From positions 343,605 through 407,604 of the forward strand of contig NZ_RAWO01000002.1 in NCBI RefSeq assembly GCF_003668955.1: 64,000 nucleotides of DNA, given 5' to 3'. Shown here one piece after another: positions 3 to 61,070 of this stretch (position 1 is the first letter of the stretch; every line of letters starts with the position of its first letter). The notes under the pieces are model-generated. The model was given only the letters and a program-made list of their open reading frames with translations, was not told the origin of the DNA and did not search any database. This stretch comes from Corallococcus sp. AB038B (lineage in GTDB: Bacteria; Myxococcota; Myxococcia; Myxococcales; Myxococcaceae). The translations under genes and the position numbers were made by a program.

Positions 3-2402
3 CTGCAGCTGGGGCCCGGGGAGATTCGCGCCTACGACTCGCTCTTCACGGCCATCGTGGGCGCGCCGTTCGTGCTGGAGCCGGACGCGGAGCTGTCCGC
101 CTCTCCCGCGCTGTTCGCTCAGGGCGCGGCCCCGCCGTTCCTGGAGGTGGGGCCACTGCCGTATCGGACGCCGGGGACTCCGGAGATTCCTCCGGTGTTG
201 CTCACTGGCGGCCTGCCGCCCCCGGAGACCGTGGACCTGCGGCTGGTTCCGGATGCTGCCATCTCGCGGGCGGCCGTGCCGGTTCCGGGCGATGGTCCTC
301 GCGACCCGCCGCCATTCATTGGCGCGTGGGCTCCGGACGTCGTGCCGGGCTGTGACGTGAGGGATCCGCAGCCGCGCCCGTGGCTCGCGGCCCCGGAGCG
401 TCCGGCGCCTGGCGCGCTGGTGGACTACCAGGCTCGCGATGCGCAGTCGTTGCTGGCGGTGATGCTGGAGCGGGCTCGCACGGTGATGTCGCCGTGGGAG
501 GACCGGGGGCCCGCGGACTTCACGACCATGTTGCTGGAGGCCGTGGCCGCGCAGCTGGACTCGCTGGCGTACCAGCAGGAGCGCGCGGTGGTGGAGGGCT
601 TCCTGGAGGAGGCCCGGTTGCGGCGCTCCGTGGAGGACCACGCGCGCGGACTGGATTACGTGCCGGATCCGGGGCTCTCCGCCACGGTGATGCTGCGGTT
701 CCGATTGGATCCGGAGGCGCTCGCGGCGTTGGTGAAGGCGCGGCTGGAGGAACTGAACCTGTCGGTACTTCCGCCCGGCACCACCGCGCTGGAGTTCCTC
801 ACCGGTGGCGGCGTGCTGGAGATTCCCGCTGAAACGCTGGTGGCGAATGTCTCCACGGACGAGCACTCGCTGGTGTTCGTCACTGAGTCGCCCCTGTCGT
901 ACTTCCCCCGGCTGGAGATCGTGACGCTCGCGGAGTCCGTGCAGTTGGGGGACACGGGCGCCACGCTCGCGGGTCTGTACCCGGAGCTGGAGCCCGGCCG
1001 TTGGCTGATCCTCTACCGGGGCCGCGGCGAGAGCGGGCACGTGGTGCGAGTGACCTCCGTGGCGCTCGCCACCGATACGACCTTTGTCGGGTGGGATCCC
1101 CGCAGGTTCGCGCCGGAGGTGTTCCTGGCGCCGGGAGACCCCGCACCCGGGCCTCGCGCGACGGTTCTGGGCAACGTGATACCCGCGCATCACGGACTAC
1201 CGGTGACGCCGCTTCCAGAGGGCTTCGAGGCGGACTCGGCGGAGCCCTTCGCGCGCAGCCTCGCGCAGTGGCGCGCGTTGCTGTCCCCGGTCGTGGACGG
1301 CAGCGAGGAGCGCGAGTTCGCCCTGCCGTTCCATCCAGTCAGCGTCCAGGCCTCCGGGTATCCACTGCCGGAGGAGACGTCGCGGCGCGGGACGCCCCAG
1401 CTCCAGGTGAGCGTGGAGGATGACCCCTGGACACTGGTGGACGACCTGTCCGTCCAGGGGCCGGGGGATGAGGTGTTCGTGCTGCGTGCGACCCCCACGG
1501 GTGGTGCCAGCCTGCGCTGGGGCGACGGCGTCAACGGCGCCTTGCTTCCGCCCCGGGAGACGGCGCTGGGACTGTCGCTGCGCGTGGGGCTGGGGACGGT
1601 GGCCAACGTGGGGGAGGGCGTGCTCACGCGGTTGCTCCAGGTGCCGTTGGATCCGCAGCGCTCCGCGTCCGCGGGCGAGCTGCTGGCCCAATCGATGGAC
1701 GACTTGCGCGCGTTGGTGCGCGTGGACAATCCGCTGCCCGCGGTGGAGGGACGCGACGCGGAGTCGCTCGACTCCATTCGCTACCGTGCGCCGGCGGGCG
1801 TGTCGCAGCCGCTGTCCGCCGTCACGGTCGACGACTATGTGCGGATGCTCCAGCAGCTGCCGGAGGTTGCGGGAGCTTCGGCGCGCGCCGTGGACCGGGA
1901 CCTGCGCACGGTCATCCGCGTGACGGTGTTGCTGCGCGACGAGGACACGCTCGACCGCGACGAGCTGCTGCGCCGATGGGCGGGGGTGCGCAGTCGCCTG
2001 GAGGAAATACGCCTGCTGGGCGTGGACGTGGAAGCGCTGCCGCCCAAATGGGTGCCGCTCGACTTGGACCTGGAGGTGGATGCCGCGCCGTATGCGCAGG
2101 CCGACCAGGTGCGCGGCGCGGTGGTGGGCGCCATCGCGGGGGACGGCGGCCTGTTGGATCCGGACCGCTCTGGCCTGAACGGCGACGTGCAGCTCGCGGA
2201 CCTGTACCAGGCGGTGCTGCGCGTCCCGGGCGTGACGGCGGTGCGGGTGAAGCGCTTCCGCCGGCTGGAGCCTCAAGCGCAGGAGCGGCTGGAGGCGGGC
2301 GTCATTCCCATTGGACCCGACGAGGTGGCCACTGCTCGGGGTGGTTACTGGCCGGGGTCTGAAGGCGTCCTCACCGTGCAGGTGTGCGGAGGACTGCGAT
2401 GA
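3..2402 (+). CDS. Baseplate J-like protein (phage gp6/gpJ, eCIS Afp11/Pvc11-like); 5' end outside the window
   Basis: The reading frame is open back to base 3, so the gene is 5'-truncated. The motif ...DFTTMLLEAVAAQLDSLAYQQERAVVEGFLEEARLRRSVEDHARGLDY... matches the conserved baseplate-J signature. ORF length is right for the family. The stop overlaps the next start (ATGA at 2399-2402). Confidence 0.7.
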   Translation: MQLGPGEIRAYDSLFTAIVGAPFVLEPDAELSASPALFAQGAAPPFLEVGPLPYRTPGTPEIPPVLLTGGLPPPETVDLRLVPDAAISRAAVPVPGDGPRDPPPFIGAWAPDVVPGCDVRDPQPRPWLAAPERPAPGALVDYQARDAQSLLAVMLERARTVMSPWEDRGPADFTTMLLEAVAAQLDSLAYQQERAVVEGFLEEARLRRSVEDHARGLDYVPDPGLSATVMLRFRLDPEALAALVKARLEELNLSVLPPGTTALEFLTGGGVLEIPAETLVANVSTDEHSLVFVTESPLSYFPRLEIVTLAESVQLGDTGATLAGLYPELEPGRWLILYRGRGESGHVVRVTSVALATDTTFVGWDPRRFAPEVFLAPGDPAPGPRATVLGNVIPAHHGLPVTPLPEGFEADSAEPFARSLAQWRALLSPVVDGSEEREFALPFHPVSVQASGYPLPEETSRRGTPQLQVSVEDDPWTLVDDLSVQGPGDEVFVLRATPTGGASLRWGDGVNGALLPPRETALGLSLRVGLGTVANVGEGVLTRLLQVPLDPQRSASAGELLAQSMDDLRALVRVDNPLPAVEGRDAESLDSIRYRAPAGVSQPLSAVTVDDYVRMLQQLPEVAGASARAVDRDLRTVIRVTVLLRDEDTLDRDELLRRWAGVRSRLEEIRLLGVDVEALPPKWVPLDLDLEVDAAPYAQADQVRGAVVGAIAGDGGLLDPDRSGLNGDVQLADLYQAVLRVPGVTAVRVKRFRRLEPQAQERLEAGVIPIGPDEVATARGGYWPGSEGVLTVQVCGGLR

Positions 2403-4921
2403 GCCGCGTTCCCTCCACGCACCAGGCGCTGACGCATGAGCAGCTCCGCACCCGGCTGGGCGAGTCGGCGCGCATCGTCTTCACCCGGCTGGACGAAGCG
2501 CCCACGTGGAATCCGCTCGCGTACGCGGCGCCCTCCTCGGTGGACCTGGGGCGGGGGCTGCTGGACAGCGTGGCGCTCGCGCTGCACGTGCTGTGGACGT
2601 ATCAGCAGGCGTGGGCGGAGGAGAGCTTCCTCGCCACCGCGCGGCTGGAGGACTCCGTCTCCAAGCTGCTCGGGCACATTGGTTATCGGCCGAGCCCGGG
2701 CACCGCGGCGGTGGGGCTCCAGCACTTCCGCTGCAAGGCGAACGTGCGCGGCACGCTGTCGCCGGGAACGGCGGTGAATTCAGCGGCGGAGGGGGAAGAG
2801 ACCGCCGCTGTGTTCGAGACGCTCGCGGCGCTGCGCCTGCTTCCGGAGCTCAACGAGCTGCGCGCGTTCCTGCCTCCTCTGGTTGGAGTGGGGACAGGAG
2901 CTGGAACCGGGACGGGGACGGAGACAGGTGGGGGAACGGGAACAGGTGGAAGCACGGGGACGGGTGGTGGGACCGGTGCGCCTTCCGGCGAGGCGGGTGA
3001 GCCCGGGGCTCCGGCCCCCACGGGCGGCATCTTCGGGCCCGGCTCGGTGGTCGCGGGGCTTCAGGATCGCATCGAGGTGCAGCGCCACGGCCCGTTGGAG
3101 GAACGGCAGGTGGCTCGAGCGAAGCAGGATGCTCGCAAGCTGGCGTCGTTGATGAAGACGTTGGACCTGGGCGGGGATGCGGCGTGCAAGAGCACTCTGG
3201 ACGCGCTCTGCGAACAACTGTGCGAGGCCCAGAAGGTCGTGGCGCAGGCGGTGCCTCCGCCCGGCCGTCCCGTGGGCGCGTTGTCCGAGTCGCAGGAGAT
3301 CCTCGCCCGCCAGCTCCGCAACTTGCAGAAGCGGCAGGCGGACGCACTGGCCGCGTTGGAGGAGGCGCTGGCCCCGTGCGCGGACGAGGACCCGACCGTG
3401 CACGCGGTCCGGTTGGACAAGATGGTCACGTTCCTGGATGCCTTCGTGAACAGCCTCATCCAGGAGGCGCGGGATCAACTCGTCATCCTCAAGGGCAGTG
3501 AGGCGCTGAACCGGGCGGACCAGGCCTTCGGCGCGGAGGCGGGAGTGGCCCGGCCGTTGGGCGTGGCGGCATCCGGAACGGACACGCTCTACCTGCTGCC
3601 ACTGACGGATGCTTCCGGGCTCACCTCTCAGGATCCGCCGGTGCGGCCAGGAGACTGGTTCGTGCTGGCCGAGGACGTGGAGCGCCTGGGCCCCGGAGGA
3701 GCGAAGGGCACGGAGCGGATCTACCGCGAAGCGCTGCGAGTGCTGCGGGTCCGCACGGAGGTTCCGCCCGGTCAGCGAACGCCGATGACGCAGGTGACGT
3801 TCCAGCCACCGCTGTCGCGCGCGTACGCGTTGGACGGCGTGGTGCTGCTGGGAAACAACACGCTCGTCAGCGAGGGCTCCACGGTGGAGGAGGTCGCCGT
3901 GCCCGCGCTGGATCTGCGCACGGTGTCACTGCTGCACGGGCCGGTGACCTGGTTGCGCGACCCGAGCCGCGCGGGAGGCCGCCGGCCGGAGGTATCCCTG
4001 ACGGTGGGGGGACTCGCGTGGCATCCGGTGGATTCGTTGTTGGACGCGGCGCCGGATGAGCTGGCCTTCGCGGTGGAGTCGCTGCCGGCCGGGGCCGCGC
4101 GGCTGCGCTTCGGAGAAGGGGACCACGGTTCTGCGTTGCCCCTGGGCGCGGAGGTGCGGGTCCGCTACCGCGTGGGCAGAGGGACGGGAGGCAACCGGGC
4201 CGCGCTGCGGCTGCTGGCGATGGCGAGCCCGCATCCCTGCGTGGAGAAGACGTTCAACCCGCTGCCGCTGGCCGGAGGAACGGATCCGGAGGCACCGGAG
4301 TTGGCGCGCGTGCGAGGGCCCGCCACGGTGGGCGCGATGGACCGCGCCGTGTCGCTCTCGGACGTGCAGGCGCTGACGTTGGTGTTCGACGGCGTGCACC
4401 GCGCGAACGTGTTCCGGGATGGCGTGCGCCGCCGTTCGTTGAAGGTGGTGGTGGCCGGGCCGGAAGGAGCAGCCCTGGGCGCAGCCGATCTGGAAGCACT
4501 CCACGCGCATCTGGCGGCACGGGTTGCGCCGAAGGTGGAGCTGAACCTGATCAATCGGCAGCGCGTGGAAGTGCGGCTGCGGGTGCTGCTGCGCGTGGTG
4601 AAGGGCGCGGATCCGGTCGCGGTGCTTCAAGAGACGCGCCTGCGGCTGGGCGTGGACCGCGACCCGGATCGTGAGCCTGGTCTGCTGGATCCGGATCGCG
4701 TGGAGCTGGGACAGGATCTGCAGCTGTCGGACGTGTACGGCGCGCTCGCGGAGATCACGGGCCTGCGCTCGGTGGTGGTGCAGCGGCTGCATCGCGAAGG
4801 CACGCCGCCAGCCCTCTTCGAGCGCATCGTCACCGCGCCCGGCGAGCTGCTCGCGTGGGCCCCGCCGTCCGGAGAAAGCGATGGCGTCGCGCTCACCTAC
4901 GAGGAGGCCCAGGACCTATGA
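2399..4921 (+). CDS. Second baseplate J-like paralog (gp6-like wedge protein) with an internal Gly/Thr-rich low-complexity linker
   Basis: The motif LLDSVALALHVLWTYQQAWAEESFLATARLEDSVSKLLGHIGYRPSPGTAAVGLQHF resembles the baseplate-J family core. The gene is ATGA-coupled to the upstream gene. The 845-aa product contains GTGAGTGTGTETGGGTGTGGSTGTGGGTGAPSGEAGEPGAP. The track start at 2384 is also possible. Confidence 0.6.
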   Translation: MSRVPSTHQALTHEQLRTRLGESARIVFTRLDEAPTWNPLAYAAPSSVDLGRGLLDSVALALHVLWTYQQAWAEESFLATARLEDSVSKLLGHIGYRPSPGTAAVGLQHFRCKANVRGTLSPGTAVNSAAEGEETAAVFETLAALRLLPELNELRAFLPPLVGVGTGAGTGTGTETGGGTGTGGSTGTGGGTGAPSGEAGEPGAPAPTGGIFGPGSVVAGLQDRIEVQRHGPLEERQVARAKQDARKLASLMKTLDLGGDAACKSTLDALCEQLCEAQKVVAQAVPPPGRPVGALSESQEILARQLRNLQKRQADALAALEEALAPCADEDPTVHAVRLDKMVTFLDAFVNSLIQEARDQLVILKGSEALNRADQAFGAEAGVARPLGVAASGTDTLYLLPLTDASGLTSQDPPVRPGDWFVLAEDVERLGPGGAKGTERIYREALRVLRVRTEVPPGQRTPMTQVTFQPPLSRAYALDGVVLLGNNTLVSEGSTVEEVAVPALDLRTVSLLHGPVTWLRDPSRAGGRRPEVSLTVGGLAWHPVDSLLDAAPDELAFAVESLPAGAARLRFGEGDHGSALPLGAEVRVRYRVGRGTGGNRAALRLLAMASPHPCVEKTFNPLPLAGGTDPEAPELARVRGPATVGAMDRAVSLSDVQALTLVFDGVHRANVFRDGVRRRSLKVVVAGPEGAALGAADLEALHAHLAARVAPKVELNLINRQRVEVRLRVLLRVVKGADPVAVLQETRLRLGVDRDPDREPGLLDPDRVELGQDLQLSDVYGALAEITGLRSVVVQRLHREGTPPALFERIVTAPGELLAWAPPSGESDGVALTYEEAQDL
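2880..3010 (+). repeat. Coding (GGN-ACN)n microsatellite producing a Gly-Thr-rich linker inside the second baseplate-J paralog
   Basis: Direct reading of ggagtggggacaggagctggaaccgggacggggacggagacaggtgggggaacgggaacaggtggaagcacggggacgggtggtgggacc. Confidence 0.7.
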
Positions 4922-5014
4922 GCCCCGCCTCGACGCGCCCGACCGGCCCCCGCCCCACGTCTGCGGACATGGGGTCAGTCTCCGTGGCTGAGAAAGAGGG
5001 AACCCTGCGGGGAC

Positions 5015-5225
5015 TCCCGGCTGCGGCGCACCGCATGAACCTGTCCGACAGCCGGACAGGATTGAAGGACCCAGGTCGGGGACCTCAGCGCCCGCCGAGC
5101 TGCGGAAACCTGTCCGACAGTCGGACAGGTTTTGAGGACGCAGGCGGGGGACCTCTGCTCCTGCCGAGCTGCGGAAACCTGTCCGACAGTCGGACAGGTT
5201 GGGACCGTGTCGGGCGGAAGGTGCA
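5015..5225. repeat. Tandem array of three ~69-bp repeats, each centred on a CCTGTCCGACAG(T/C)CGGACAGG palindrome, in a 382-bp gap inside the baseplate operon
   Basis: The palindromes sit at about 5040-5060, 5106-5132 and 5175-5200, with a 69-bp period. Copies 2 and 3 extend to AAACCTGTCCGACAGTCGGACAGGTTT, a perfect 12-bp stem with a 3-nt loop. The flanks are also similar (gagctgcggaaa before, and g(a/g)ggac...gggacct after). No CDS in this gap has plausible codon usage. Confidence 0.8.
5106..5138 (+). terminator. Candidate intra-operon attenuator/terminator hairpin (palindrome copy 2 followed by TTTT)
   Basis: AAACCTGTCCGACAGTCGGACAGGTTTTGAGG has a 12-bp stem, a 3-nt loop and a short T run. 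It lies between the stop of gene 2 (4921) and the start of gene 3 (5304). Confidence 0.3.
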
Positions 5226-5303
5226 CGGCATTGATGTTCGGGCGCTTGGTGCGGCGCGTTACAGCGTGGCCGCGACGCTTCCGGTCGTGGAGGGGCAGGC
5301 CCC

Positions 5304-8300
5304 ATGAGCCCTCCTTCTCAGCGGCTGATCCAGCTCCTTCCGGGGCTCTACCCGGCGCGGGACTCCACGCTCGCGGATCAGCCGCTCCTCAAGCTGCTCG
5401 CCGTGCTGGGCATGGAGCTGGATGCGTTCGCGCGCGCAGTGGATCAACTCTGGGATGATCATTTCGTGGAGCGTGCAGGCCCGCAGGCGCTGCCGTTGCT
5501 CGCGGAGTTGATGGGCGCACGGCTGATCACCGACAACCCTCGCGTGCAGCGCGGAGTGGTGGCTCGCGCGGTGGCGTGGCGACGACGGAAGGGCACGCTC
5601 GCGTCGCTGGAGGAGGTGCTCTCCGTCACCAGCCTCTGGGACGCGGAAGTGGACGAGTCCTTCCGTTCGCTGCTGGAGACCCAGGACCTCAACGACCTGC
5701 TGCCCTGGCGCGGCCGCAGCGCGGTGATGTGGGATCCCATCGGCCTCGCGGATCCGCTCACCCGCCGCTCGCCTGGCATCGAGCGTCCCCGCGACGGTGT
5801 CCCGGAGCGTGGCCTCTTCATTGGCGTCGCGCCCGGCGAGACGCTGGACCAGGCTTTGCGCCGACTGGGGAGCGCGGACGCAGGCCGTGTTGCCGCGACT
5901 CCGCGCACGCTGGACCTGCTGGGCTGGGCACGTCCGGATGTCGCCCTCATCCGCACCGCGCGCCTGACGCCCGTGGAGTTGGAGGAAGTCACCCCGGCCA
6001 CCGTGCTCACGCTGCCCAACGGCTACCGGGGCTTTCGCGTGGATCCACTCGACCGCGATGCTCCCCTGGTGTGGCTCAAGCCCCTGGAGCGCGCGGACCT
6101 CACGGGAGGCCTCACCGCTCGCCATGAGCCCGCGCCTCCGTCGCTCGTCACGGGACGCACGGCGGCGATGCTGCTCACCCCTACCTCGCTGGCCGAGGAC
6201 GCCGACGCCGCTGAACGCGCGGATGCCATCACCGTCTCCGTCGACGGCATTCCGCTGGTGGGACCGGAAGCCCTGCCACTCCTGCGCGGGCCGCTGCCCA
6301 CCGCGCCCGTGGGGCCCTCGCCCACGCTGCGCTTCGCGGACCGGGGCAGGCCTTCGCCCGGAGACACATGGCGACTGACGCTGCTGGCCGCGCGTGAGAA
6401 CTCGGACACGGTGCTCCTGTCCACCGAGCTTGTGGCGGACGCACTGAATGCCGTCACCGTCACGCCGGAAGCGAACCAGCTCCTGGGTGGCACCACGGCG
6501 GCGTTGCTCGTTGAACGGGTGAGCGGTGATCCGCGCCTGCGCGACGCGGACGGCACGTGGCGCACCCTCACCGTGGGGCTTCGCCAGGGGCCTCCTCGCA
6601 GCAACGCCATCCGCGTGGATCTGGCCGGTGCGCCGTGGGTCGCTCGCATCGAGCAACACCTCGCGGATGGCAGCCTGCGCCTTGCCCGCTTCGACGCGAG
6701 CGCTGACGGCGCGCCCTGGCAGGTGACGGAGCTCATCGGCGCGTTGCCTCCAGACGGTCCAGGCATGTCCCTGGCCATTGCTGGTGACTCACTGTTGCTG
6801 GTGGCGCCGGACGGCACGGGGAAGCTGGGCGTGTGGTCGGTGACGGGCCTGGACACCGCGACTCCGACGGGGACGCGGTTGGACACCGCGAGCCCACGGC
6901 AGCCCTCGGCGCGACTGGCTCCCAGCCTGTGCGTGCGCGGCGGCCGGCTCTTCGTCTTCGGCGGTGACCTGGGCGGCGCGCCCACTGGAGACCTCTGGTC
7001 GCTGCCGGTCACGGGCGGACCGTGGCGGCCCCATGCAGTGCGCAACCGCCAGGAGCGCAAGGCCGCGACGCTGCTGAGCACGGCGCAAGGACTGATGCTC
7101 GTGGGCGGCGAGGCCGTGACGGGAGAACTGGCCGTGCCGGTGATGCTCTGTGACCCGGCCTCCGCGAGCCCTGTCTGGCGCCCCCTGGCCCCACTGCCCA
7201 TCACCGCGAACCTGCCAGGCACGCTCGTGGCAACCACCACCGCCGACGGCGTGGAGGCGCTCGTCTGGGCGGACACGACGCGTCCTCAACGGATGACGCT
7301 GAAGGCAGGCGAGGATGCCTGGGTCGCCGGACTGCTGGAGGCCTCGGGCACGAACCCGCCGGTTCCGGGCGAAGCGCTCTACGTCGATGGGCGCGTGCTC
7401 CTCACGGATCCGGCGCCGCTGCCCGCGTCGGAGATCGTCTTCTCACTGGGCGGTCGCGGCTACCTGGCCTTCCTGCCAGAGCTGGCCCTGCTCCCGGATG
7501 AACTCCTGCGCTTCAACGTCGCCAACGACGGCGCCGCGTTCATCGAACCTCGCGAGGGCCAGCCGCTCCCGCTCGATTCCCGGCCCGGCGGTGCGTACCA
7601 CTCGAGGGATGCTTCCGTGGCCGGCGGTGCGCGGCGCTATTCGGTGCCCGGACGGCTGAGTCGCCACCCGTTCCAGCTGCGCCAGCGAAGCCTGGGCCCG
7701 TGGACGAAGCTCGCTCCGAGCATCGCCTCCGGCATCGTCGCGGTGGATCCACGCCTGGGCCGCGTCGTGATCCAGGACGACGCACCCGTGGGCCGTGTCA
7801 CCGTCTCCGCGCGGGTAGGGCGGGGCGCCTCATTGGGAGCGGGGCTGCTTCCTCCGGACCGCCGTCCGCCCGCCGCGTGGGCGGAGCCGGACTTCCCGTT
7901 CATCGATCCGCCGGACCGTCCTGGCGACCGCTCCGGCACCGGCCTTCCTGTCACCGCGTGGATCTCCCCGGAGCGCGCGGGCGGAGTGCTGGCGGCCGGA
8001 GGCCAGGAGCGGCCCATCGTCGCCACCGTCGCGGATGGACTCCAAGCCGGAGCACCTCCGGTGCTGGGCCTCATCGGTTCGCCGCGTCTTGCTCCGGAGC
8101 GTCTGTCACAGGGCCTGGACAACGGGCTGTCCCTCTTCGCCGCGGACACGGGCGCGGCGCCATGCATCGGCGCGGACGAGCACGGCCTCTCGCTGGCGCT
8201 CTACCCGGGCTTCGGAGGCAGCGCGGCCACGCGCGTGTGGCTCGCGGGCTTGTGGCTCGCGGGGCGGCTGGACCTGGTGCTCGCTCGGGGGCAGGCGGAT

Positions 8301-8945
8301 CTGCGCTGGTGCAACCTGGGCGCGCCCGGACAGGTGGGCGTGTGGATGCCGGGCGGTGGGCACCAGGACATCAGCGCGCGGCGTTCGCTGCCTCCCGCCG
8401 ACGTGGAGCTGCGCCTCTACGGCTGCATGGTGGGCGTCATCGAGCTGCCGCCCTGGGTGCACCTCATCGCCGCGGGCTGCACCTTCGACGCCGGAGACCG
8501 CGACGCCGTCGCCATCCGAGCGGCGGGCGCGACCGTGCGACTGCGGCACTGCACGGTGCTCGGGGCCACGGAAGCGGGTGTGCTGGAGGCTTCCTCCTGC
8601 GCCTTCGCGGGCGAGGTGCGCACGGACCGGCCGGACCTGGGCTGGCTGCGCTACAGCCTCTTCGCGCGCGGCGGACAGCCTCCGGTGTCGCACCAGTCGC
8701 GGGTGCACACCGTGTCCTTCCAGTCGAACCGCCAGACGGACCCGGGCTACCTCGTCCTGGGCGACAACAACGGCCCCGAAGCGCTCCACGCCTCCGAGCG
8801 CGGCGGAGTCCCCGGTGCCCACGACGAGCGCTCTGACCACGAGCGCGAACTCTCCGCGCGCACCGACGACAGCATGCCCATTGGCATCACGCCCTTCCAC
8901 GCCGACCGCAGCCAGGACGACCTCGTTCGGATGAGCCGACCATGA
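5304..8945 (+). CDS. Phage P2 gpI-like baseplate wedge protein (tail protein I family; eCIS Pvc12/Afp12-like) with a C-terminal Kelch-type beta-propeller extension
   Basis: The N-terminus LIQLLPGLYP...LLKLLAVLGMELDAFARAVDQLWDDHF...ALPLLAELMGAR...RRRKGTLASLEEVL matches the Tail_P2_I signature (LLP..., LW, LPxLA, KGT). Repeated Kelch-like blades are present (GGRLFVFGGDLGGAPTGDLWSL..., LMLVGGEAVTGEL...). The stop overlaps the next start (ATGA at 8942). Confidence 0.65.
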   Translation: MSPPSQRLIQLLPGLYPARDSTLADQPLLKLLAVLGMELDAFARAVDQLWDDHFVERAGPQALPLLAELMGARLITDNPRVQRGVVARAVAWRRRKGTLASLEEVLSVTSLWDAEVDESFRSLLETQDLNDLLPWRGRSAVMWDPIGLADPLTRRSPGIERPRDGVPERGLFIGVAPGETLDQALRRLGSADAGRVAATPRTLDLLGWARPDVALIRTARLTPVELEEVTPATVLTLPNGYRGFRVDPLDRDAPLVWLKPLERADLTGGLTARHEPAPPSLVTGRTAAMLLTPTSLAEDADAAERADAITVSVDGIPLVGPEALPLLRGPLPTAPVGPSPTLRFADRGRPSPGDTWRLTLLAARENSDTVLLSTELVADALNAVTVTPEANQLLGGTTAALLVERVSGDPRLRDADGTWRTLTVGLRQGPPRSNAIRVDLAGAPWVARIEQHLADGSLRLARFDASADGAPWQVTELIGALPPDGPGMSLAIAGDSLLLVAPDGTGKLGVWSVTGLDTATPTGTRLDTASPRQPSARLAPSLCVRGGRLFVFGGDLGGAPTGDLWSLPVTGGPWRPHAVRNRQERKAATLLSTAQGLMLVGGEAVTGELAVPVMLCDPASASPVWRPLAPLPITANLPGTLVATTTADGVEALVWADTTRPQRMTLKAGEDAWVAGLLEASGTNPPVPGEALYVDGRVLLTDPAPLPASEIVFSLGGRGYLAFLPELALLPDELLRFNVANDGAAFIEPREGQPLPLDSRPGGAYHSRDASVAGGARRYSVPGRLSRHPFQLRQRSLGPWTKLAPSIASGIVAVDPRLGRVVIQDDAPVGRVTVSARVGRGASLGAGLLPPDRRPPAAWAEPDFPFIDPPDRPGDRSGTGLPVTAWISPERAGGVLAAGGQERPIVATVADGLQAGAPPVLGLIGSPRLAPERLSQGLDNGLSLFAADTGAAPCIGADEHGLSLALYPGFGGSAATRVWLAGLWLAGRLDLVLARGQADLRWCNLGAPGQVGVWMPGGGHQDISARRSLPPADVELRLYGCMVGVIELPPWVHLIAAGCTFDAGDRDAVAIRAAGATVRLRHCTVLGATEAGVLEASSCAFAGEVRTDRPDLGWLRYSLFARGGQPPVSHQSRVHTVSFQSNRQTDPGYLVLGDNNGPEALHASERGGVPGAHDERSDHERELSARTDDSMPIGITPFHADRSQDDLVRMSRP

Positions 8946-27451: not shown

Positions 27452-30400
27452 TCATGGAGGAGGCCAGCGGGGCGGCAAGAGATCGATGACGCGGCGGCCG
27501 AAGCTCTCCGCGTCCGTTTCAATGGGCTGCCGGAAGTACCTTGGGTCTCCCGGCCCGTAGTAGTGGCCGCCGGAGCCAGGCAGGTTGCGCCACCACCGGC
27601 GCGAGAACGGATGCGACTGTCGGCCAATCGAATACTGGTAGGCCTGATACGCCTGATAGTAGTGCCGCGACTCGTGGACGGCGGTGCCCACCGCGTCGCC
27701 CACGTCCAGGTTCTCGTTGATGACGATGACGCCACGCCGGCTTACGGGCGCGAGCCGGCCCTGGTGCGTGACGTTGAAGTCCCATTCCATCCATCCGTAG
27801 TCCCCAGCCGGCAGGTTCTGGAATTCGACCCGTGGACGACGCGACTGGGGGACGCCCATGGCATCCATTGCCGCACCCACTGACTTCTTGAGGGCCTGCT
27901 GCCGGTCCCGGAGCGACAGCGTGCCGAACGTCGAGGGGTCCAGCTCCGGGATGTCCTCCAGCCCCGCTTGCAGGTCGCGCATCTGCGCCAGCTCGAAGGG
28001 CTTGAACCGGCGGCTGCTCCAGCTGCGGGAGACGGTGACGTCGAAGTCCCCCCAGCCCAGCACGTTGCCGGTGGGACCTATCGTGCGAATGCGCTTCGCG
28101 GTCTCGAACGGTTCGATGATCCGGGCGATCTCTCCCGGCTTCACGTTCGGGTCCAGGCTGTGGATGAGCCCCTTCAGCTGTTTGGGATCGATGTTGTACT
28201 GGGCCAGCAGGCCTGGCTTGCGCTTCGTGCCCTTGAGCGCCGACTCCACCTTCTTCAGCACCTTCAGCGTGGCCCCGACGCGGCCCTTCTTCAGCTCATC
28301 CCTGAAGACAACCATCAGGGCATCGAGCTCCGCGCGGGGGGCCGAACCGTGGGGCATGACCTCCCGGACCAGCGACATCTTGCGCCACGCGTCCGCGATG
28401 CGTTCGACGCGGTCGACGAGCTCCCAGCCCGGCGGAGGCATGGGGGTAATGGGCCCCACGCGCAGCTCGATGGAGATCCGCCACTCGTCGATGGCCTTGG
28501 TCAGCGCCTCCAGGTGCGCCGGCCCCAGGCCTCTCGCCCGGGTCCAGGCCAGGTCCGACAGCTGCGCTTGCAGGTCGTCCAGGTTCTTGCGGAGGTTCTC
28601 CCCCACCGCCGTGAAGTCCTTGAGCCTGGGGGCGTGCTTGCCGCCCTTCACCTCGACCAGGTGGAGCTTCGCGCTCGTCGGATCCGCGGCGTGGTCGAAC
28701 TCGACGATGATTTCATCGATGCCGCTGCCTTGCTCCGCGCCCCTGGGCTTGAAGTCCAGCCGCCGGAATCGCTCCGTCGGCCCCATCCGTTCGCCGAGCA
28801 GCGCCTCCGTGAACGCCCGGGACTTCTGCTTCTCCACCACCTCGCCCGCCTCGGTGGTGCCGTAGCCGCGCGGCTGCCAGCGGTTGCGGGAGCGCTTGGA
28901 CAGGATGAGCTCGATGTATTCCTTCTCACCGCTGGCGCGAGTCACCTCCACCAGCTTGTAGTAACGGAGCTCCTTGGGGCGGTACATGACCTCCTGCCAC
29001 GCGGGGCCGATCTGCGCCACCGTGTCCGCCGGATCCAGCTCCAGCGTGGTGCGCCCACGCTGGAGGTCGTCGAACACCTGGCGCGGTGCGCTCTTGATGT
29101 ACGGATCATCCAGCTCCGGCCCCCCCTTCGAGAACGGCCCCACCTCCGGGTGGTCGCCGTGGAGCACGGTGTTGGGCCACACGTTGTTGGGCCTGCCTGG
29201 CTCCCGGATGACGGGCTTGGTGTCCGTCACGGTGAGCACCGGGGCCGTCTTCTTCCCACCTCCGCGCGTCTTGACCGCCGGCGGCTTCGTCTCCGGAACG
29301 ACCACCTCCGGTGGCTTCGCCGTGGGAAGCTCCATCTCCAGCTGTTTTGGCGTCGGAACCTCCGGCGCTGACGGCTTCGCCGGGGTGAATTCCAGCTCCA
29401 GCTGTCTGGCCCCCTCCGCCTCCGGTGAAGGGACGGGCGGTTCCTTCTTGCTGAACAGCCGTGGAGGCTCATTCAGGTACTGCGGCTTCGAGCGCACGCC
29501 CTGGCCGAACTCCGCCATGTCGAGGGGTGTGAACGCATCCACCTCCTTCATCCGCTGGCGCAGGTTCTCCAGCGTCTTCTTTCCCTGCCGGATGCGGCGG
29601 GTCGCCTCCTCCGGGTCCATGGACACGCCGCGCTTGCCCTCCAGCGACGTGAGCAGCGACTCCTGCGCGTCGATCTCCAGGAGCAGCTTCTTGCGATAGA
29701 GCTCGAACTGCTTCTCGATGGGCAGCTTGTCCCAGTGCCGCAGCGCCCGTTCGTCCAGGGCCTTGATCAGGTCGCGCGTCGCCTTGTCGTGGCGCTGGAG
29801 CAGGTGCAGGCCCTCCTCGCCCAGGTCGGACAGGTCCGCGCCCGCCTTGACGATGATGGTGGGCTTGCCGCGCCGGAACATCGCGACGGCCTGGGCGGAC
29901 TTGCTGCCGGTGAGGGCTTCGAAGTCCGCCTCGGAGATCAGCTCGATGGGCGTGTTCGCGAACGCCTTTCGCTGCGCGGGCGGGATGTGCTCCAGCAGCT
30001 CCTTGCGCATCGCGCGCTGGAGCTGCTGCCGGTCGAAGTCGCCGGACATCTGCTTGAGCAGGCCCTCGTCGAACTCGCGCAGGAACTCCTTCATGTTCCC
30101 GGCGGGGTTCTCCGCCTTCCACTTCTTGAAGAGGGTCAGCCGCTCCTTGGGCGTGCCCCGGAAGTGGAGCAGGTCCTGGGTGCGCGGCGGGACATGGGGC
30201 TTGGAGATGCCGCCCAGCGCGCCGAAGGCCCCGGCCATCACCGCGCCCGGCGCCGCCTGCATCACGGTGCCGGCCAGCACGTTGAAGAGCGCGTTGCCGC
30301 CCTTGTAGTTCTCGTCGTTGAGGACGTTGCCCAGGAACGCGGAGGGCGCGGACTGCACCAGGCCTTCGGCGCCCTGGGCCAGGCCGTGCGCCGCCACGCG

Positions 30401-33400
30401 GGCCATCACCCCGCCTTCCTCCGCCATGCGCGCCAGGAACCCCAGCTTGAGCAGCTTCGTGCCCATGCCAGCGGTGGCCGCGGCGGTGAGGGCGTCCACG
30501 GCGCCCACGCCCGCGTCGACGGCCGCCTCCTCCCAACCGTAGGCGCTGCCCTTCATGGCGGCCTTGGTCAGCATCGTCACCGCGGCCGTCGCCACCGCCA
30601 TGCCCACCAGCACCGGCGTGCTGGCCATGAACGCGCCGAACGCGGCCCAGAACCCCGCGCCCGCGGGCGGAGCGAAGATGCTGACGATGACGCCGATGAT
30701 GATCACCACCGCCATCACCACCGCGGTGAGGACCATCACCAGCCGGTCGGTGATGAAGTCCACCTGCTCGCGGTGCATCTGCACCGACTCGTCGGCGTAA
30801 TCACCCTGGCGCTGCACGCGATCGGACTTCTTCTCCCAGTCGTCCTGCCACTGGCGCAGCCCGTCGGCGGTGTAGTTCTTGTCCCCGGGCTTGGGGCGCA
30901 TCCGCTCGTGCAGCTCCAGCGCGCTCACCTCGGCGTCGAGCGCGGACGCCTGGTCCAGCACCAGCTGGTACTCCGACGACGCCAGGCTGTTGGTGGAGCG
31001 CGCCTCGAAGTGCACCCGGCGCCAGGCCCGGTCCGCCTTCTCGCGGGGCGTGACGGGCTCGCCGTAGTCCACCATGTCCAGGACGTCGAACTCATCGCGT
31101 CCGCCCAGCTCCTCGTCGATGCGCGCGCGGAAGCGCTCGAAGGGCGTGCGCGTGTCGCCAGGGTCGGCGGGGTGGTCCTTGGCCCACTCCTCGGCCATGG
31201 CCTGGATCTCCGCCTTCGTCTTCCCGGCGAAGACCTCCTTGAGCGCGTCCTCGTCCGTGCCCACGCCCTGCACGGCGTACTGAACGATTTCCGCGTCGGT
31301 GAGGTAGCCCTTCTCCAAGAGCGACGCGACGGCGTCCCGGTCCGCGCCGGACGTGTCCATCAGGACGGCCTGCTCGAAGCTCGCCTGGAGGTGCGTGCCC
31401 TCCACGTAGGCGCTGTCGTACTCGGCCGCCAGCGCCTTCATGTTCGCCATGGCGTCGGCCTGGGCCTGGGCCTTCGCCTTGCCGTCCACCTCCTTGCGTT
31501 CCTTCGCGATGCGGGCCTGGACCTTCTCCGGGCTCCACTTGTCCAGGAACTCCACTTCACTGATGCGGCCCTTGCGGCGGTCCTCCTCCGTGAGCGGGCC
31601 TTCGCTGGCGGGCTTGACCTTCGCCTCGTCCAGCGTGCGCTCGATGTCCATTCGCTCCTGGACGTCCAGGTAGCCGTCACGGCGCGCGTCGGCGATCTGC
31701 CGCTTGCCCTGCGCGGACATGGCGTCGCGGATGACCTTGTCGTCCGCGTAGAAGACGCTGGTGTGCTCGATGCGGATGCGCGCGGCATCCACCTGGAGTC
31801 CCTTGTCGTCGCGCAGGCCCTCGATGAGCTTGAGGTCCTCGCCCTTCATCTCGTCGTGGAACGCGGCGCTGAGCGCGCTCTCACCCGTGGTGCGCTCGGT
31901 CCACTCCGGGCCGTATTGCTTCTCATACGACGCGTCGATGGCCTGGTTGCGCTTGAGCAGCTCCGCGCGGAACGTCTTGGTGTCCCAGCCGTACTGCTGC
32001 GCGTCCGCCTCCGTCTCCTTGCGGATGCGGTCGTAGACGCCCTCCATGGCCTTGCGGTCGGTGCCCAGGCCGAAGAACCACCCGCCGCGCATGGCGCGGT
32101 CCATCTCGATGGCGCGCGCGTCCTCGGTGCGGCCCTCCACCAGGGCGTGCATCTCGTCCACGTCGTGTGTCTTGAGCGCGCCGCTGCGCAGCTCGTCGTC
32201 CATCTGGACGACCAGGTCCTTGCCGTACTTCTGCTGGTAGGCCTTCTTGATGGCTTCGATCTGCTCCGGCGTCTTGCCGCGAAGCAGGGTGAGGATGGCG
32301 GCCTCGTCCGTGCCCCAGCCCAAGCCGAAGAAGGTGCCCTCCATGGCGTCGTTCAGCTCGACAGCGGCGGCCTTGGAGGCGTTGCCGGAGAGCAGCGCTT
32401 CCGCCTTGTCCCAGTCGTGCGTGGTGGTGCTGAAGAAGTCGTCCAGCTCGCTCTTGAGCCGCTCGCGCAGGTTCTCGTTGTGCTCCTGCTGGTAGAGGAG
32501 CTCGATGTAGTGGCCCTGGAGCGGGTTGAGGTTGGCGAGCGCGTCGAAGATCTTCTTCTCGTCCGTGCCCCACTGGTCCACGCCCTCCCAGACCTTGAGG
32601 GAGATGTTGCGAGCGCGGTTGCTGAAGAGGGGCTCCTGCTGGTCGACGACGATCTTGAGCCGCTCCAGGTCTGTGGACGCGAGCAGCTCCTTCTCCAGGG
32701 CCTCCATGAGCGGCTTGCGGCGCTGGCCGATGATGCGCACGGCCAGTCCCTCCGCGAGCGCCTGCACCGCGTCCTTGCCACCCTTGCCGTAGTAGGAGAG
32801 CAGGATGGCCTTCTGCTCCTCGCTGAGGGCGTTGTTCCCCTTGATGGTCTCCGCGTCCAGCTCCTCGCCCTGGCGCAGGCGCACCTCCGCGAGGAACAGC
32901 ATGTTCTGGTCCAGCGACGTCTTGTTCTCCGCCGCGCGAGCGGTCTCCCACGCGCGGCTCTCGTCGTGGGCGGCCGCCAGCCAGTCGATGATCCACCCGA
33001 GCAGCCGGTCCCAGAAGCCGCGCTCGTAGCCGATCTGCTTCGCGTGCCAATCGCGGATGACCTCCCGGGCCTCCTTGCCCGCGTCGCGCAGCTCCTGCTG
33101 ATAGCGCTCCACGCTCTGGTCGATGTCGCGCTTCGCCTTCGAGACGACGGCGCCAATCTCCTTGCGGCGGTCGTCCAACCACTTCTTGGTGGGGCGGTAC
33201 GCCTCCGTGGCGGTCTTGAGCTTCACCGGATCATCGCCGGCGTCCTTCTTGAGCTCCCACTCGTCCTGGAGCGCGGCGAGCTCGTAGGCGTGCATCTGGT
33301 CGCTCGCGGCCTTCGCGAAGGCTTCCTTGAAGCGCTTGCCGTTCTGGTCGTACCGGACGACCCAGTTGCTCACCTTGGTGTCCACGGCCGCGATGAGCGC

Positions 33401-58897: not shown

Positions 58898-59787
58898 GTC
58901 GCAAGGTCACCGTCATCATGCGCTCGAAGGACTCGGCCTGGGTCATAGGCCAGGCGCTCTCCGGCCTGTTCTCGCAGGCGCGCAAGGACTTCGAGTTGCT
59001 CGTGGTGGACTCGGGCTCCAGGGACGCGACGTTGGACATCGTCTCGCGCTTCCCCTGCAAACTGATCCGCATCGACGCCGGGGCGTACTTCCCGGGCGTG
59101 GTGCTCAATCGAGCCATCCGCGAAGCGCAAGGCGACATCATCGTCTTCCAGAACTCCGACGTGGTGCCGCTGACGCCGCAGGCGCTGGACCGGTTGCTGG
59201 AGCCCATCGAGCGCACCGATGCGGACGCGACCTTCGCGCGACAGCTGCCGAGGCCCGAAGCGCACACGTGGGTGCGAAGGGATTACGAAGTGGCATTCCC
59301 AGCGCAGGGAGCGCCGCCGCCCTGGATGACGTACTCGCTGCCATTCGCGGCGATGACGCGGGATGCGTGGCTCAAGCAACCGTTCTACGAGGACGCATGG
59401 GGCTCCGAGGACACGGAGTGGGGACACCGGGCGCGAGGCCACGGGCTCCGGGTGCGCTACGTGCCGGACGCGTGGGTGATGCATTCGCACAACTACACGT
59501 TGAAACAGTTGTACGGGCGCCGCTTCATCGAAGGCGAGGCGGATGCCTTCATCCGGGAGGAGCCCGCATCGCTGACGGGACTGGCCCGGAAGCTGGGCGC
59601 GTCATGGGCAAGGGATGCGGTCGCGCACATCCGGGCGCGAGATGCCGCAGGCCTGGCGCTCTCCGTTCCCCGGCGGCTCGTGTACCACTGGGCTTATTGG
59701 AAGGGACACCAGTGGGGAGAGCAGCGCCTGCGGAGCGGGAACGCGGACGCGAGCGTGGGTCAGCGGGTGGTGCTGCGGCGGCAGTGA
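58894..59787 (+). CDS. Glycosyltransferase family 2
   Basis: VTVIMRSKDSAWVIGQALSGLFSQARKDFELLVVDSGSRDATLDIV is the GT2 N-terminal signature, with a DxD-like region. Confidence 0.75.
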   Translation: MSRKVTVIMRSKDSAWVIGQALSGLFSQARKDFELLVVDSGSRDATLDIVSRFPCKLIRIDAGAYFPGVVLNRAIREAQGDIIVFQNSDVVPLTPQALDRLLEPIERTDADATFARQLPRPEAHTWVRRDYEVAFPAQGAPPPWMTYSLPFAAMTRDAWLKQPFYEDAWGSEDTEWGHRARGHGLRVRYVPDAWVMHSHNYTLKQLYGRRFIEGEADAFIREEPASLTGLARKLGASWARDAVAHIRARDAAGLALSVPRRLVYHWAYWKGHQWGEQRLRSGNADASVGQRVVLRRQ

Positions 59788-59886
59788 GTTTGAGCGCGCA
59801 CCGCGCAGACGTTCCCTATGTCGAGGCCGCGCCTGCGCATCGGGCATGCGGATGCGAGCGTGGGTCAGCGGGTGGTGCTGCGACGG
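59741..59886. repeat. Direct repeat (~46 bp, 2 copies about 98 bp apart) duplicating the 3' end of the GT2 gene at the convergent junction with the downstream GT1 gene
   Basis: gcgga(c/t)gcgagcgtgggtcagcgggtggtgctgcg(g/a)cggcagtg occurs at 59741-59787 and again at 59838-59886. The second copy overlaps the 3' end of the reverse-strand GT1 gene. Confidence 0.6.
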
Positions 59887-61070
59887 CAGTGCGCTTGCTC
59901 CGCACCACGCAGCATCTCCTCGATGCCGAGGACGTAGGCGTCGAGTGAGGCGTGTTCCCTCACGATGTCGAGCGCTCGCTGGACAAGCGACGCCTGTGCC
60001 GCCGCGTCCCGGTGGAGGGCCGCCAGCGCCTCGGCGAAAGCCTCACCCGTGCACGCCTTCACCAGCCGCGACGCGTCGTGCCGCTCGAGAAAGTCGCGAG
60101 CCCCGCCGCTGGGGGACGCCGCCACCGGCAGGCCGCAGGCCATGGCCTCCAGATACGTGAGGCCCTGGCCCTCGTGCTCCAGCTTCGACGCGAACAGAAG
60201 CGCATCCGCGTCCTGATACAGCGGAAGCAACTGCTCGCGGGGCAACTGTCCGGCCCATGCCACGCGTCCGCCCACTCGCAGCGCCCGCGCCCGTTGCCGC
60301 AAGGACGTGAGGTACGCCGGATCGTCCGCCGCGCCCGCCAGCGTGAGGGTGGCCTGGACGCCGCGCTTCTCCAAAGCCGCCAGGGCGTCGATGGCCGCAT
60401 CGGGCGCCTTGCTCGGATGGAGCCGGCCGACGAAGAGCAGCCGAGGCTCTGCGCGCATGGGCCGGAAGGGACGTGGGGTGAAGCGCGACAGGTCCACGCC
60501 CTGCGACCGCACGACACCGAAGCCCAGCGGTACACCCGCCGCGAGGCACGTGCGCCGGACCGCGTCCGAAAGCCACGCGACCCCCGCGGGTTGGATGCCG
60601 GTCCACGTTCGTGAAGGCACCAGCAGCGAGTCGATGACGCCGCCCAGCCGGGCCCAGGGCCGCGCGTCGAGCCCCACGCTGAACGCCACCGGCCAGTCAT
60701 CGTTCACCGTGACGATCGCAGGGACGCCGGCCTCCTGGAGCACCCGCAGCGGCGCGAGCCCCAGTCTCCGCAGGCTCATGACCAGCACCGCGTCCGGCCT
60801 GCCACGGACCTTCAGGTAGCGGCGCACCGCCGCCGTGTTTCGCGCACCGGCCGCGAAGTGTCGGAGGCGATCCCGCCCCGCGGGCTGGCCGAAGCGGCGA
60901 GCCAGGCAAAGGGTCCGCAGCACGCGCCCGTTCTCGGAGCCATCGCCGCTGGTGAGGACATCGACCACGTGGCCGCGCCGCTCCAACCCCTCCACCACAT
61001 CCCGCGCGAGCAGTTCGTAGCCGCCGAGGACGTCGGGCGGGTACAGGTTGGTAAGGACGGTGACTCTCAC
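59865..61070 (-). CDS. Glycosyltransferase family 1 (GT4-type)
   Basis: MRVTVLTNLYPPDVLGGYELLARD N-terminus. C-terminal GT1 motifs (LLFVGRLHPSKAPDAAIDAL, LFASKLEHEGQGLTYLEAMACGLPVAAS). Confidence 0.85.
   Translation of the reverse strand: MRVTVLTNLYPPDVLGGYELLARDVVEGLERRGHVVDVLTSGDGSENGRVLRTLCLARRFGQPAGRDRLRHFAAGARNTAAVRRYLKVRGRPDAVLVMSLRRLGLAPLRVLQEAGVPAIVTVNDDWPVAFSVGLDARPWARLGGVIDSLLVPSRTWTGIQPAGVAWLSDAVRRTCLAAGVPLGFGVVRSQGVDLSRFTPRPFRPMRAEPRLLFVGRLHPSKAPDAAIDALAALEKRGVQATLTLAGAADDPAYLTSLRQRARALRVGGRVAWAGQLPREQLLPLYQDADALLFASKLEHEGQGLTYLEAMACGLPVAASPSGGARDFLERHDASRLVKACTGEAFAEALAALHRDAAAQASLVQRALDIVREHASLDAYVLGIEEMLRGAEQAHCRRSTTR

Follow-up and report, generated by a model that had tools for sequence, protein, structure and literature searches.

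A palindromic interspersed repeat of Corallococcus in a baseplate gene junction and its probable link to FadR/GntR-type regulators

Mycobacterial interspersed repetitive units (MIRUs) contain an open reading frame (ORF) that overlaps the stop and start codons of the flanking genes, and translation is relayed through it (PMC12548453). Streptococcus BOX elements have the layout boxA-(boxB)n-boxC, and large copies form ORFs on both strands (PMC3049150). Repetitive extragenic palindromic (REP) sequences consist of imperfect palindromes preceded by a conserved GT(A/G)G head, and the gene for the REP-associated tyrosine transposase (RAYT) is flanked by two inverted REPs (PMC2817692). Sites bound by FadR-subfamily regulators are palindromes of the form NyGT-N3-ACNy, with GT and AC 3 nt apart and often an adjacent extra box 7–12 nt away (PMC4494728). 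Here, we describe a tandem palindromic repeat between two baseplate genes of Corallococcus sp. AB038B, located in a 64,000-nt stretch of contig NZ_RAWO01000002.1 (the window; coordinates are window positions unless a locus is named). The repeat is not an operon-specific device; it represents a single copy of a modular, interspersed repeat family with abundant members in Corallococcus. We give a probability of about 0.6 to an overall reading in which this dispersed repeat was inserted once, was tolerated, is crossed by an ORF that relays translation, and carries an operator-like palindrome.

Like MIRUs, the repeat consists of tandem units of tens of nucleotides between operon genes and varies in copy number between strains; the ~40–100-nt units of MIRUs and their ORF overlapping the flanking stop and start by 4 nt are matched here by a 69-nt period and a bridging ORF with ATGA at both ends. 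The Corallococcus family differs in having a strong perfect palindrome and head and tail modules, and in lying mostly outside operons; bridging is well supported at the junction of genes 2 and 3 only and is seen at few others. The likeness, to repeats of another phylum, is one of arrangement. The composite structure of BOX elements (head, variable tandem array, and tail) and their size differences between strains are also found here. However, the Corallococcus sequence is unrelated and GC-rich, and is tied to a regulator gene family; no terminal inverted repeats or short target duplications were identified, and a 50–70-nt duplication is seen at the junction instead. As with REP sequences and bacterial interspersed mosaic elements (BIMEs), the palindromes are abundant, clustered, and mostly extragenic, and a protein-coding gene is characteristically associated with them. 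In contrast to REP/BIME, the arrays are direct, the palindrome is perfect and lacks a GTAG head, and the associated gene encodes a multi-copy FadR/GntR regulator with the palindrome both upstream and in the 3′ coding tail. The family goes beyond a generic REP element in its filled and empty junctions with a duplication, in a relay ORF that has stayed open through divergence, and in its FadR/GntR link.

MIRU-type behavior would extend outside mycobacteria to Myxococcota, where a coupled operon appears to have absorbed a repeat insertion of 200–600 nt through a junction duplication and a throw-away ORF that would relay ribosomes. The abundant repeat is tied to an expanded regulator family, and a binding site may be spreading with it through a 10-Mb genome, which could rewire regulation. 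If true, the family would be REP-like but would have a transcription factor, not a transposase, as its cognate protein.

The repeat at the junction and across the genus

The repeat lies in a co-directional cluster of four genes (Table 1), of which gene 2 was defined by ORF and codon statistics. Pfam domains in the cluster are Baseplate_J, Tail_P2_I with kelch repeats, and beta-helix/DUF6519, and a Phage_base_V spike gene and an AAA+/Pvc16_N gene are found farther along. The cluster is an extracellular-contractile-injection-system (eCIS)-like locus. The gene 2 product shares 100% identity with an 840-aa protein of Corallococcus sp. AB038B; its distant homologues are named baseplate J/gp47. Genes 1 and 2 (2399–2402) and genes 3 and 4 (8942–8945) overlap by ATGA, and 382 nt separate the gene 2 stop from the gene 3 ATG at 5304; the first-pass annotation, made from the sequence alone, had described these junctions in the same way.

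Tandem Repeats Finder placed a repeat at 5038–5200 (period 69, 2.4 copies, 89% matches, score 256), and the 21-nt core, with up to 3 mismatches, occurs at 4 sites in the window versus 0.00 expected from 100 shuffles. The three tandem 69-nt units reported in the first pass are therefore real. A perfect palindrome had been claimed for every unit; this applies to copies 2 and 3, and copy 1 is degenerate. Copy 2 contains two overlapping FadR-type boxes, TGTCCGACA and AGTCGGACA, and the TTTT said to follow it is present at 5130–5133, made up by one further T after the palindrome. A solitary fourth copy elsewhere in the window had been missed. The spacers are homologous to each other, so the array was correctly judged not to be CRISPR-like, and no cas domains were found among the neighboring genes scanned.

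An exact scan for CCTGTCCGACNGTCGGACAGG in 8-kb blocks covered one genome per species, and the resulting counts are lower bounds. The palindrome was found in at least 120 blocks, nearly all from Corallococcus. Among the blocks listed, at least 38 come from C. exercitus SDU142 and at least 15 from C. coralloides KYC2213, and a few are from Hyalangium, Archangium, and metagenome-assembled genomes (MAGs) of Myxococcaceae. The 120 listed blocks and the window (121 sequences) contain 293 palindrome copies with up to 4 mismatches; 86 of these are solitary, and the largest array has 13. Spacing between copies peaks at 69–73, 92, and 138–141 nt, and the central base is A or T at equal frequency. With a crude gene caller based on G+C content at third codon positions (GC3), 41 palindrome clusters were placed between tandem, 26 between convergent, and 15 between divergent genes. 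A dispersed element resembling REP sequences or miniature inverted-repeat transposable elements had been one of the first-pass suggestions, and it fits this genus-wide intergenic repeat. A locus-specific device, which had been said to be untenable if the motif were dispersed genome-wide, is contradicted in kind by the same counts.

The element is laid out as a ~75-nt head, n units of a 27-nt palindrome and a ~42-nt spacer, and a ~55-nt tail. At the junction it covers ~4938–5260, and the earlier extent of 5015–5225 was too small because the head and tail were not included. The head, with the consensus ...CGGACATG.A.TC.GTCCCC..GGATGAGAA.G.GAGAACCCTGC.GGGAC..., occurs once per array. A complete element with a head, one palindrome, and a tail is found at positions 4083–4240 of locus L054. 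Family arrays are direct repeats of the palindrome and a homologous spacer, and the spacers are homologous both within and between arrays. With respect to the genes on either side, 7 head-bearing elements lie in sense and 11 in antisense, so neither orientation is favored.

Searches for a described relative or a mobilizing gene were negative. There were no matches to the repeat in viral contigs, and no terminal inverted repeats were identified for the element, whose flanking duplication of ~50–70 nt is seen at one locus with an empty site. Pfam searches of 92 neighboring genes detected no transposase and no dominant family; GntR had only 3 members because most of the regulator paralogs had been set aside as palindrome-containing genes. 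The searched literature links no such repeat to Myxococcus or Corallococcus and does not print the palindrome, and the repeat family is apparently undescribed.

Insertion history and the bridging ORF

The comparison of orthologous junctions proposed in the first pass was made with nine junction sequences and gene calls for a tenth, and gave five empty and five filled junctions (Table 1). A comparison of 3 kb of coding DNA flanking the junction groups the five filled strains in a single clade of up to 11.5% divergence and places the empty strains outside it, so the simplest history is one insertion in the ancestor of the clade. The 4-nt ATGA overlap of the empty junctions is the ancestral state. 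The MAG with an empty junction carries the palindrome at another locus (L097).

Homology to the empty sites stops at ~4938 and ~5261, at the outer edges of the head and tail. The insert is flanked by what appear to be two degenerate copies of the ancestral junction. Anchored identity of the left copy to the empty sites is 14–15 of 26 positions in the window and 17–18 of 26 in AB011P and CA049B (loci L121 and L122; binomial P ~1e-4). For the right copy, it is 14 of 24 in the window and 16 of 24 in L121 and L122. The right copy also holds the Shine–Dalgarno sequence GGAGG (5289–5293) that serves gene 3.

The favored history is a single entry of a modular repeat into the ancestral ATGA overlap of two baseplate genes, dating to the ancestor of one Corallococcus clade, with duplication of ~50–70 nt of the junction on insertion. 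Because the junction was duplicated, the end of gene 2 would have been preserved, and gene 3 would have retained a ribosome-binding site and start of its own. The left copy would supply the old gene 3 start and the right copy the old gene 2 stop, together producing a chimeric ORF through the insert that selection may have kept open and in phase.

Such an ORF is present. The insert had been described as non-coding, which is misleading in that a 129-codon ORF spans the gap. Each of the five filled strains has this ORF open and bounded by ATGA on either side, at 129, 154, 164, 191, and 61 codons. The other two sense frames each have at least one additional stop in the four longer inserts; all three frames are open in the 185-nt insert of AB049A. 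Every pair of the four aligned inserts is separated by 2–4 indels of a length that is not a multiple of 3, and the net pairwise differences are always multiples of 3 (75, 105, 186, 30, 111, and 81). In dinucleotide shuffles, the frame was open in 5.5–11.8% of trials per sequence, before the one-in-three requirement for phase. Translation of the palindromes would give NLSDSRTG in one strain and (E/K)PVR(L/Q)SDRF in another; since their frames differ between strains, the peptide is not conserved, and translatability is. These patterns point to selection for translation across the insert, with the ORF kept open and in phase.

Since the ORF appears to be kept open and in phase, ribosomes would relay from gene 2 to gene 3: those ending gene 2 would re-initiate, translate the insert, and terminate on the gene 3 start. 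Translation through the insert would preserve coupling, melt the hairpins, and avoid termination or polarity over a gap of ~380 nt.

The ORF at 4918–5307 might alternatively be a genuine gene for a 129-aa protein with 23-residue repeats (NLSDSRTG...), as its ATGA coupling at both ends and its openness in five strains would allow, but this is implausible given its GC3 of 0.73 versus 0.84–0.94 in neighboring genes, the lack of codon bias or periodicity, a frame and peptide that change between strains, and its absence from sister species.

Other bridging ORFs were found at three loci (Table 1). A candidate bridging ORF at L087 was dropped, as it is the upstream region of a regulator paralog. Family-wide selection for translatability was also considered and rejected. 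Stop codons in arrays number 145 versus 330 ± 15 expected; after de-replication of the spacers, the counts are 90 versus 102.5 ± 7.9, or 23 versus 25. The depletion is mainly an artefact of repeated units, and repetition of the stop-free palindrome, together with composition, accounts for most of it.

Arrays vary between strains in the manner of variable number tandem repeats. Compared with C. interemptor, AB049A has a recent 276-nt deletion in which two palindromes were lost in frame. A third degenerate junction copy (GGGACCTCTGAGCCATGCCTCG), preceded by a half palindrome (GAGCTGTCCGACAGG), lies inside the insert of AB011P (L121:5386–5406) and at the equivalent position of CA049B (L122), and suggests a second insertion or duplication at the same junction. 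In the public annotation of L121, L122, and L128, gene 3 begins 5′ of the conserved ATG, inside the insert, and its product is given as 1263, 1238, and 1281 aa versus 1213. The repeat thus distorts gene calls: arrays create spurious or extended ORFs, and gene 3 is called 25–68 residues too long in these three relatives.

Table 1. Coordinates of the junction, repeat, and regulator features
Feature	Position	Strand	Details
Gene 1	57–2402	+	Overlaps gene 2 by ATGA (2399–2402)
Gene 2, eCIS-type baseplate operon	2399–4921	+	Stop TGA (4919–4921) overlaps ATG at 4918
Bridging ORF	4918–5307	+	129 codons; from ATGA on the gene 2 stop to ATGA on the gene 3 start
Left junction copy (putative)	4918–4947	+	ATGA and ~26 nt homologous to the ancestral gene 3 5′ end (MSPAS.R vs MS.PSQR)
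Head module	4959–5037	+	BLAST and nhmmer, 39 hits at 36 loci; every array has one, immediately 5′ of its first palindrome
Palindrome copy 1	5038–5062		Degenerate (GTC to GCC), 8-bp stem; 1 of 2 GT-N3-AC boxes broken
Spacer 1	5063–5105	+	Homologous to spacer 2
Palindrome copy 2	5106–5132		Perfect, 13+1+13: AAACCTGTCCGAC A GTCGGACAGGTTT
Spacer 2	5133–5175	+	Homologous to spacer 1
Palindrome copy 3	5176–5200		Perfect, 12+1+12
Tail module	5201–5258	+	BLAST hits in 6 other loci
Right junction copy (putative)	5261–5303	+	Remnant of the final ~45 nt of gene 2; aligns collinearly with empty sites up to the ATG
Gene 3	5304–8945	+	Tail_P2_I (gpI-like) baseplate domain and kelch repeats (Pfam)
Gene 4	8942–16549	+	Overlaps gene 3 by ATGA (8942–8945)
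Palindrome copy 4	24481–24507		Solitary, same 27 nt, perfect; between ends of convergent ORFs
Empty junctions			ATGA 4-nt overlap; C. llansteffanensis, C. soli, Myxococcaceae MAG PMG_225, a Logan assembly, a JGI contig
Filled junctions			AB038B, 386 nt; C. interemptor, 461; AB011P, 491; CA049B, 572; AB049A, 185
Other bridging ORF	L050		6 copies; 192 codons; ATGA at both ends
Other bridging ORF	L090	−	2 copies; 125 codons
Other bridging ORF	L101		3 copies; 86 codons
Regulator locus	L053:4424–5584	−	
Regulator locus	L068:6457–7749	−	
Regulator locus	L090:4651–5922	+	
Other regulator loci	L036, L100, L002, and 17 more		

The palindrome and the FadR/GntR regulators

Six of the eight scanned genes that were classed as containing a palindrome encode GntR-type regulators. 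A tblastn search with one of these genes recovered a single FadR/GntR paralog family, at 65–100% identity, from 23 of the 120 listed blocks and from 11 of the 38 listed for SDU142. The protein is FadR-like over both domains, with matches to PDB FadR (residues 23–224) and NCBIfam NanR (residues 14–208). A database search gave 442 homologues at E ≤ 1e-10, the best 120 of which are all from Corallococcus; among these, the SDU142 chromosome contributes at least 15 clusters that are distinct at 90% identity, and AB038B contributes 1. No exact-sequence database match was found for the AB038B regulator paralog P0194 or for the window gene 3 protein.

All 23 sampled paralogs have a perfect or near-perfect 27-mer upstream of the ATG (MSDPSGW...), at about −78 (range −49 to −84). 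The palindrome is centered at −77 to −84 in 17 genes, at −65 in 1, and at −49 to −52 in 5. Counted from the ATG, the repeated DNA unit around the paralogs begins at about −250 and ends at about +880, and the 27-mer is the best-conserved part of the upstream regions. A second palindrome copy lies 940–1360 nt into the ORF in 11 of the 23 paralogs. It is in the same frame in all six examined, where it encodes (A/V)LGNLSD(C/S)RTG even though the C-terminal tail is variable, of low complexity, and marked by indels. The 23 loci were sampled because they bear the palindrome. One paralog, C. macrosporus P0116, was picked by protein alone, and its only 12+1+12 palindrome within 7 kb is at −79. This palindrome is a variant, AACTGGTCCAAC A GTCGGACCAGTT, with two positions changed on both arms.

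The 27-mer is made up of two GT-N3-AC boxes, TGTCCGACA and its mirror AGTCGGACA, which share the central A. It has in common with FadR-subfamily operators the 3-nt distance between GT and AC, the adjacent extra box, and the position upstream of the regulator's own gene. It differs in being GC-rich rather than A/T-rich, in its 27-nt length with two overlapping boxes, and in its well over a hundred copies in arrays and repeat elements. Because it occurs upstream of every sampled paralog and contains two GT-N3-AC boxes, the palindrome is a probable operator. Taken as one statement, that it is the operator of the FadR/GntR family and has been dispersed by repeat elements is a reading we favor with some reserve. 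The likely operator of this Corallococcus-specific FadR/GntR expansion is part of the repeat, so the repeat family would spread the binding site through the genome. The first-pass suggestion of a repeated operator for a dimeric DNA-binding protein stands to this extent, with a candidate site 49–84 nt upstream of the 23 sampled genes and at a similar position in P0116.

Arrays of 5–7 palindromes spaced ~140–150 nt apart lie directly upstream of some FadR/GntR paralogs (L036:2716–3234, L004, and L056). Their building block is not the 69-nt unit; it is a longer one with homology to positions −200 to −50 of the paralogs. Promoter and terminator scans found nothing upstream of a regulator paralog. 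Of two metagenome scans with the regulator, the first gave no match, and the second gave generic GntR helix-turn-helix matches only.

Alternative explanations and other features of the window

Several results weigh against the favored reading. Statistical support for the junction duplication is modest in the window (anchored P ~2e-3 to 7e-3), and the duplication is not visible in the C. interemptor/AB049A lineage, and was not detected at four other bridging-ORF loci checked, L087 included. Arrays are stop-poor by nature, with 105 of 192 frames open across arrays of at least 3 copies, so part of the openness of the bridging ORF comes free. Bridging ORFs are weakly enriched family-wide, in 7–8 of 106 element contexts versus 17 of 497 without the element (~two-fold). 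No regulator gene of the FadR/GntR family lies within the window, and all but one of the paralogs bearing on the operator were sampled for having the palindrome. Finally, palindrome columns at the junction are 91–94% identical between strains versus 64% for the remaining insert. This strong conservation could mean a function at this locus, which a merely tolerated insertion does not predict. Our default reading at the junction remains a tolerated insertion whose cost was neutralized, with regulator binding putative.

A joint reading would combine both aspects. The operator of a FadR/GntR burst (at least 15 paralogs per genome) would have been dispersed by the modular repeat to well over 100 places, operon interiors among them, and the array here would act as a regulator-dependent roadblock that the relay ORF makes tolerable. 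We consider this reading possible but rather improbable.

An adaptive operator array is rather unlikely. FadR/GntR paralogs would bind two or three palindromes at the junction as a regulated roadblock or looping anchor, and expression of gene 3, of the giant gene 4, and of genes farther along would be tuned or switched against that of the baseplate genes. The fixed upstream position, the FadR-type motif, and the conservation at the junction all agree with this, and the second palindrome in the coding tail of many paralogs suggests two-site binding. However, sister species have the same operon without the insert, copy number at the junction ranges from 1 to 3, with two copies recently lost in AB049A, copy 1 is degenerate, and the 69-nt spacing lacks helical phasing. 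The family also occupies intergenic regions of every kind, and gene conversion from other copies could account for the conservation instead.

A role at the RNA level, also among the first-pass suggestions, with the hairpins acting as attenuators, terminators, or 3′-exonuclease barriers that set the ratio of upstream to downstream products, as for REP/BIME, is less likely. Predicted hairpin energies for copies 1, 2, and 3 are −14.7, −19.9, and −18.0 kcal/mol, with A-tract and T-tract flanks and the TTTT after copy 2. The region folds better than shuffles (z = −5), and head-bearing elements prefer convergent over divergent intergenic regions (11 versus 1). In contrast, no terminator-like plus-strand site was found in 4000–6500, where T tails reach TTT or TTTT only. 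The promoter scan found nothing on the plus strand at the junction, and the fold of spacer 2 is no more stable than shuffles. Palindrome variants across the family are one-sided, with 57 and 44 broken pairs on one side versus 3 and 2 double changes; with almost no compensatory change, the shared feature is a sequence, not an RNA structure. An apparent covariation signal in the palindrome was rejected, as it came from the same one-sided variants read on both strands. RNAalifold on 15 head copies supported no structure apart from the palindrome. Rfam gave no match at gathering score in the whole window, and a relaxed E-value on 4850–5350 returned miRNA-hairpin noise only. The conserved bridging ORF implies that ribosomes melt the hairpins, and relatives run the same operon without the insert.

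Dispersal by a single-copy RAYT, as in REP doublets forming hairpins (REPINs), is very improbable. Although the palindrome is high-copy, mostly extragenic, often clustered, and conserved at the sequence level, it has no GT(A/G)G head (flank consensus ...CGCACG/GCGGA-AAACCTGTCCGAC...). The arrays are direct, with homologous spacers, one head per array, and no alternating orientation. A phmmer search with E. coli RayT against 7041 six-frame ORFs from ~1 Mb of palindrome-bearing loci found nothing at E ≤ 10, and the genes scanned around the palindromes contain no recurrent transposase family. The recurrent neighbor is a transcription factor.

The fourth palindrome copy lies ~75 nt past the stop of a small plus-strand ORF (24185–24406) and ~110 nt past the end of a convergent ORF (24615–26129, minus strand). 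Nearby, in 22249–24188, the plus-strand ORFs 22249–23460 and 23457–24185 are ATGA-coupled to the preceding gene and have non-coding-like codon composition (GC3 0.67). They may be recent acquisitions or another translated spacer. The window as a whole has 70.4% G+C. Annexin domains are unusual in bacteria. A 2690-aa protein encoded at 27452–35524 (minus strand), adjoining the injection-system genes, matches an Annexin repeat (PF00191, E = 1.9e-20) as well as the metallopeptidase-like DUF6782, and may be a cargo or effector. An unrelated tandem repeat is present at 59724–59912 (period 105, 1.8 copies, 85% matches, score 292).

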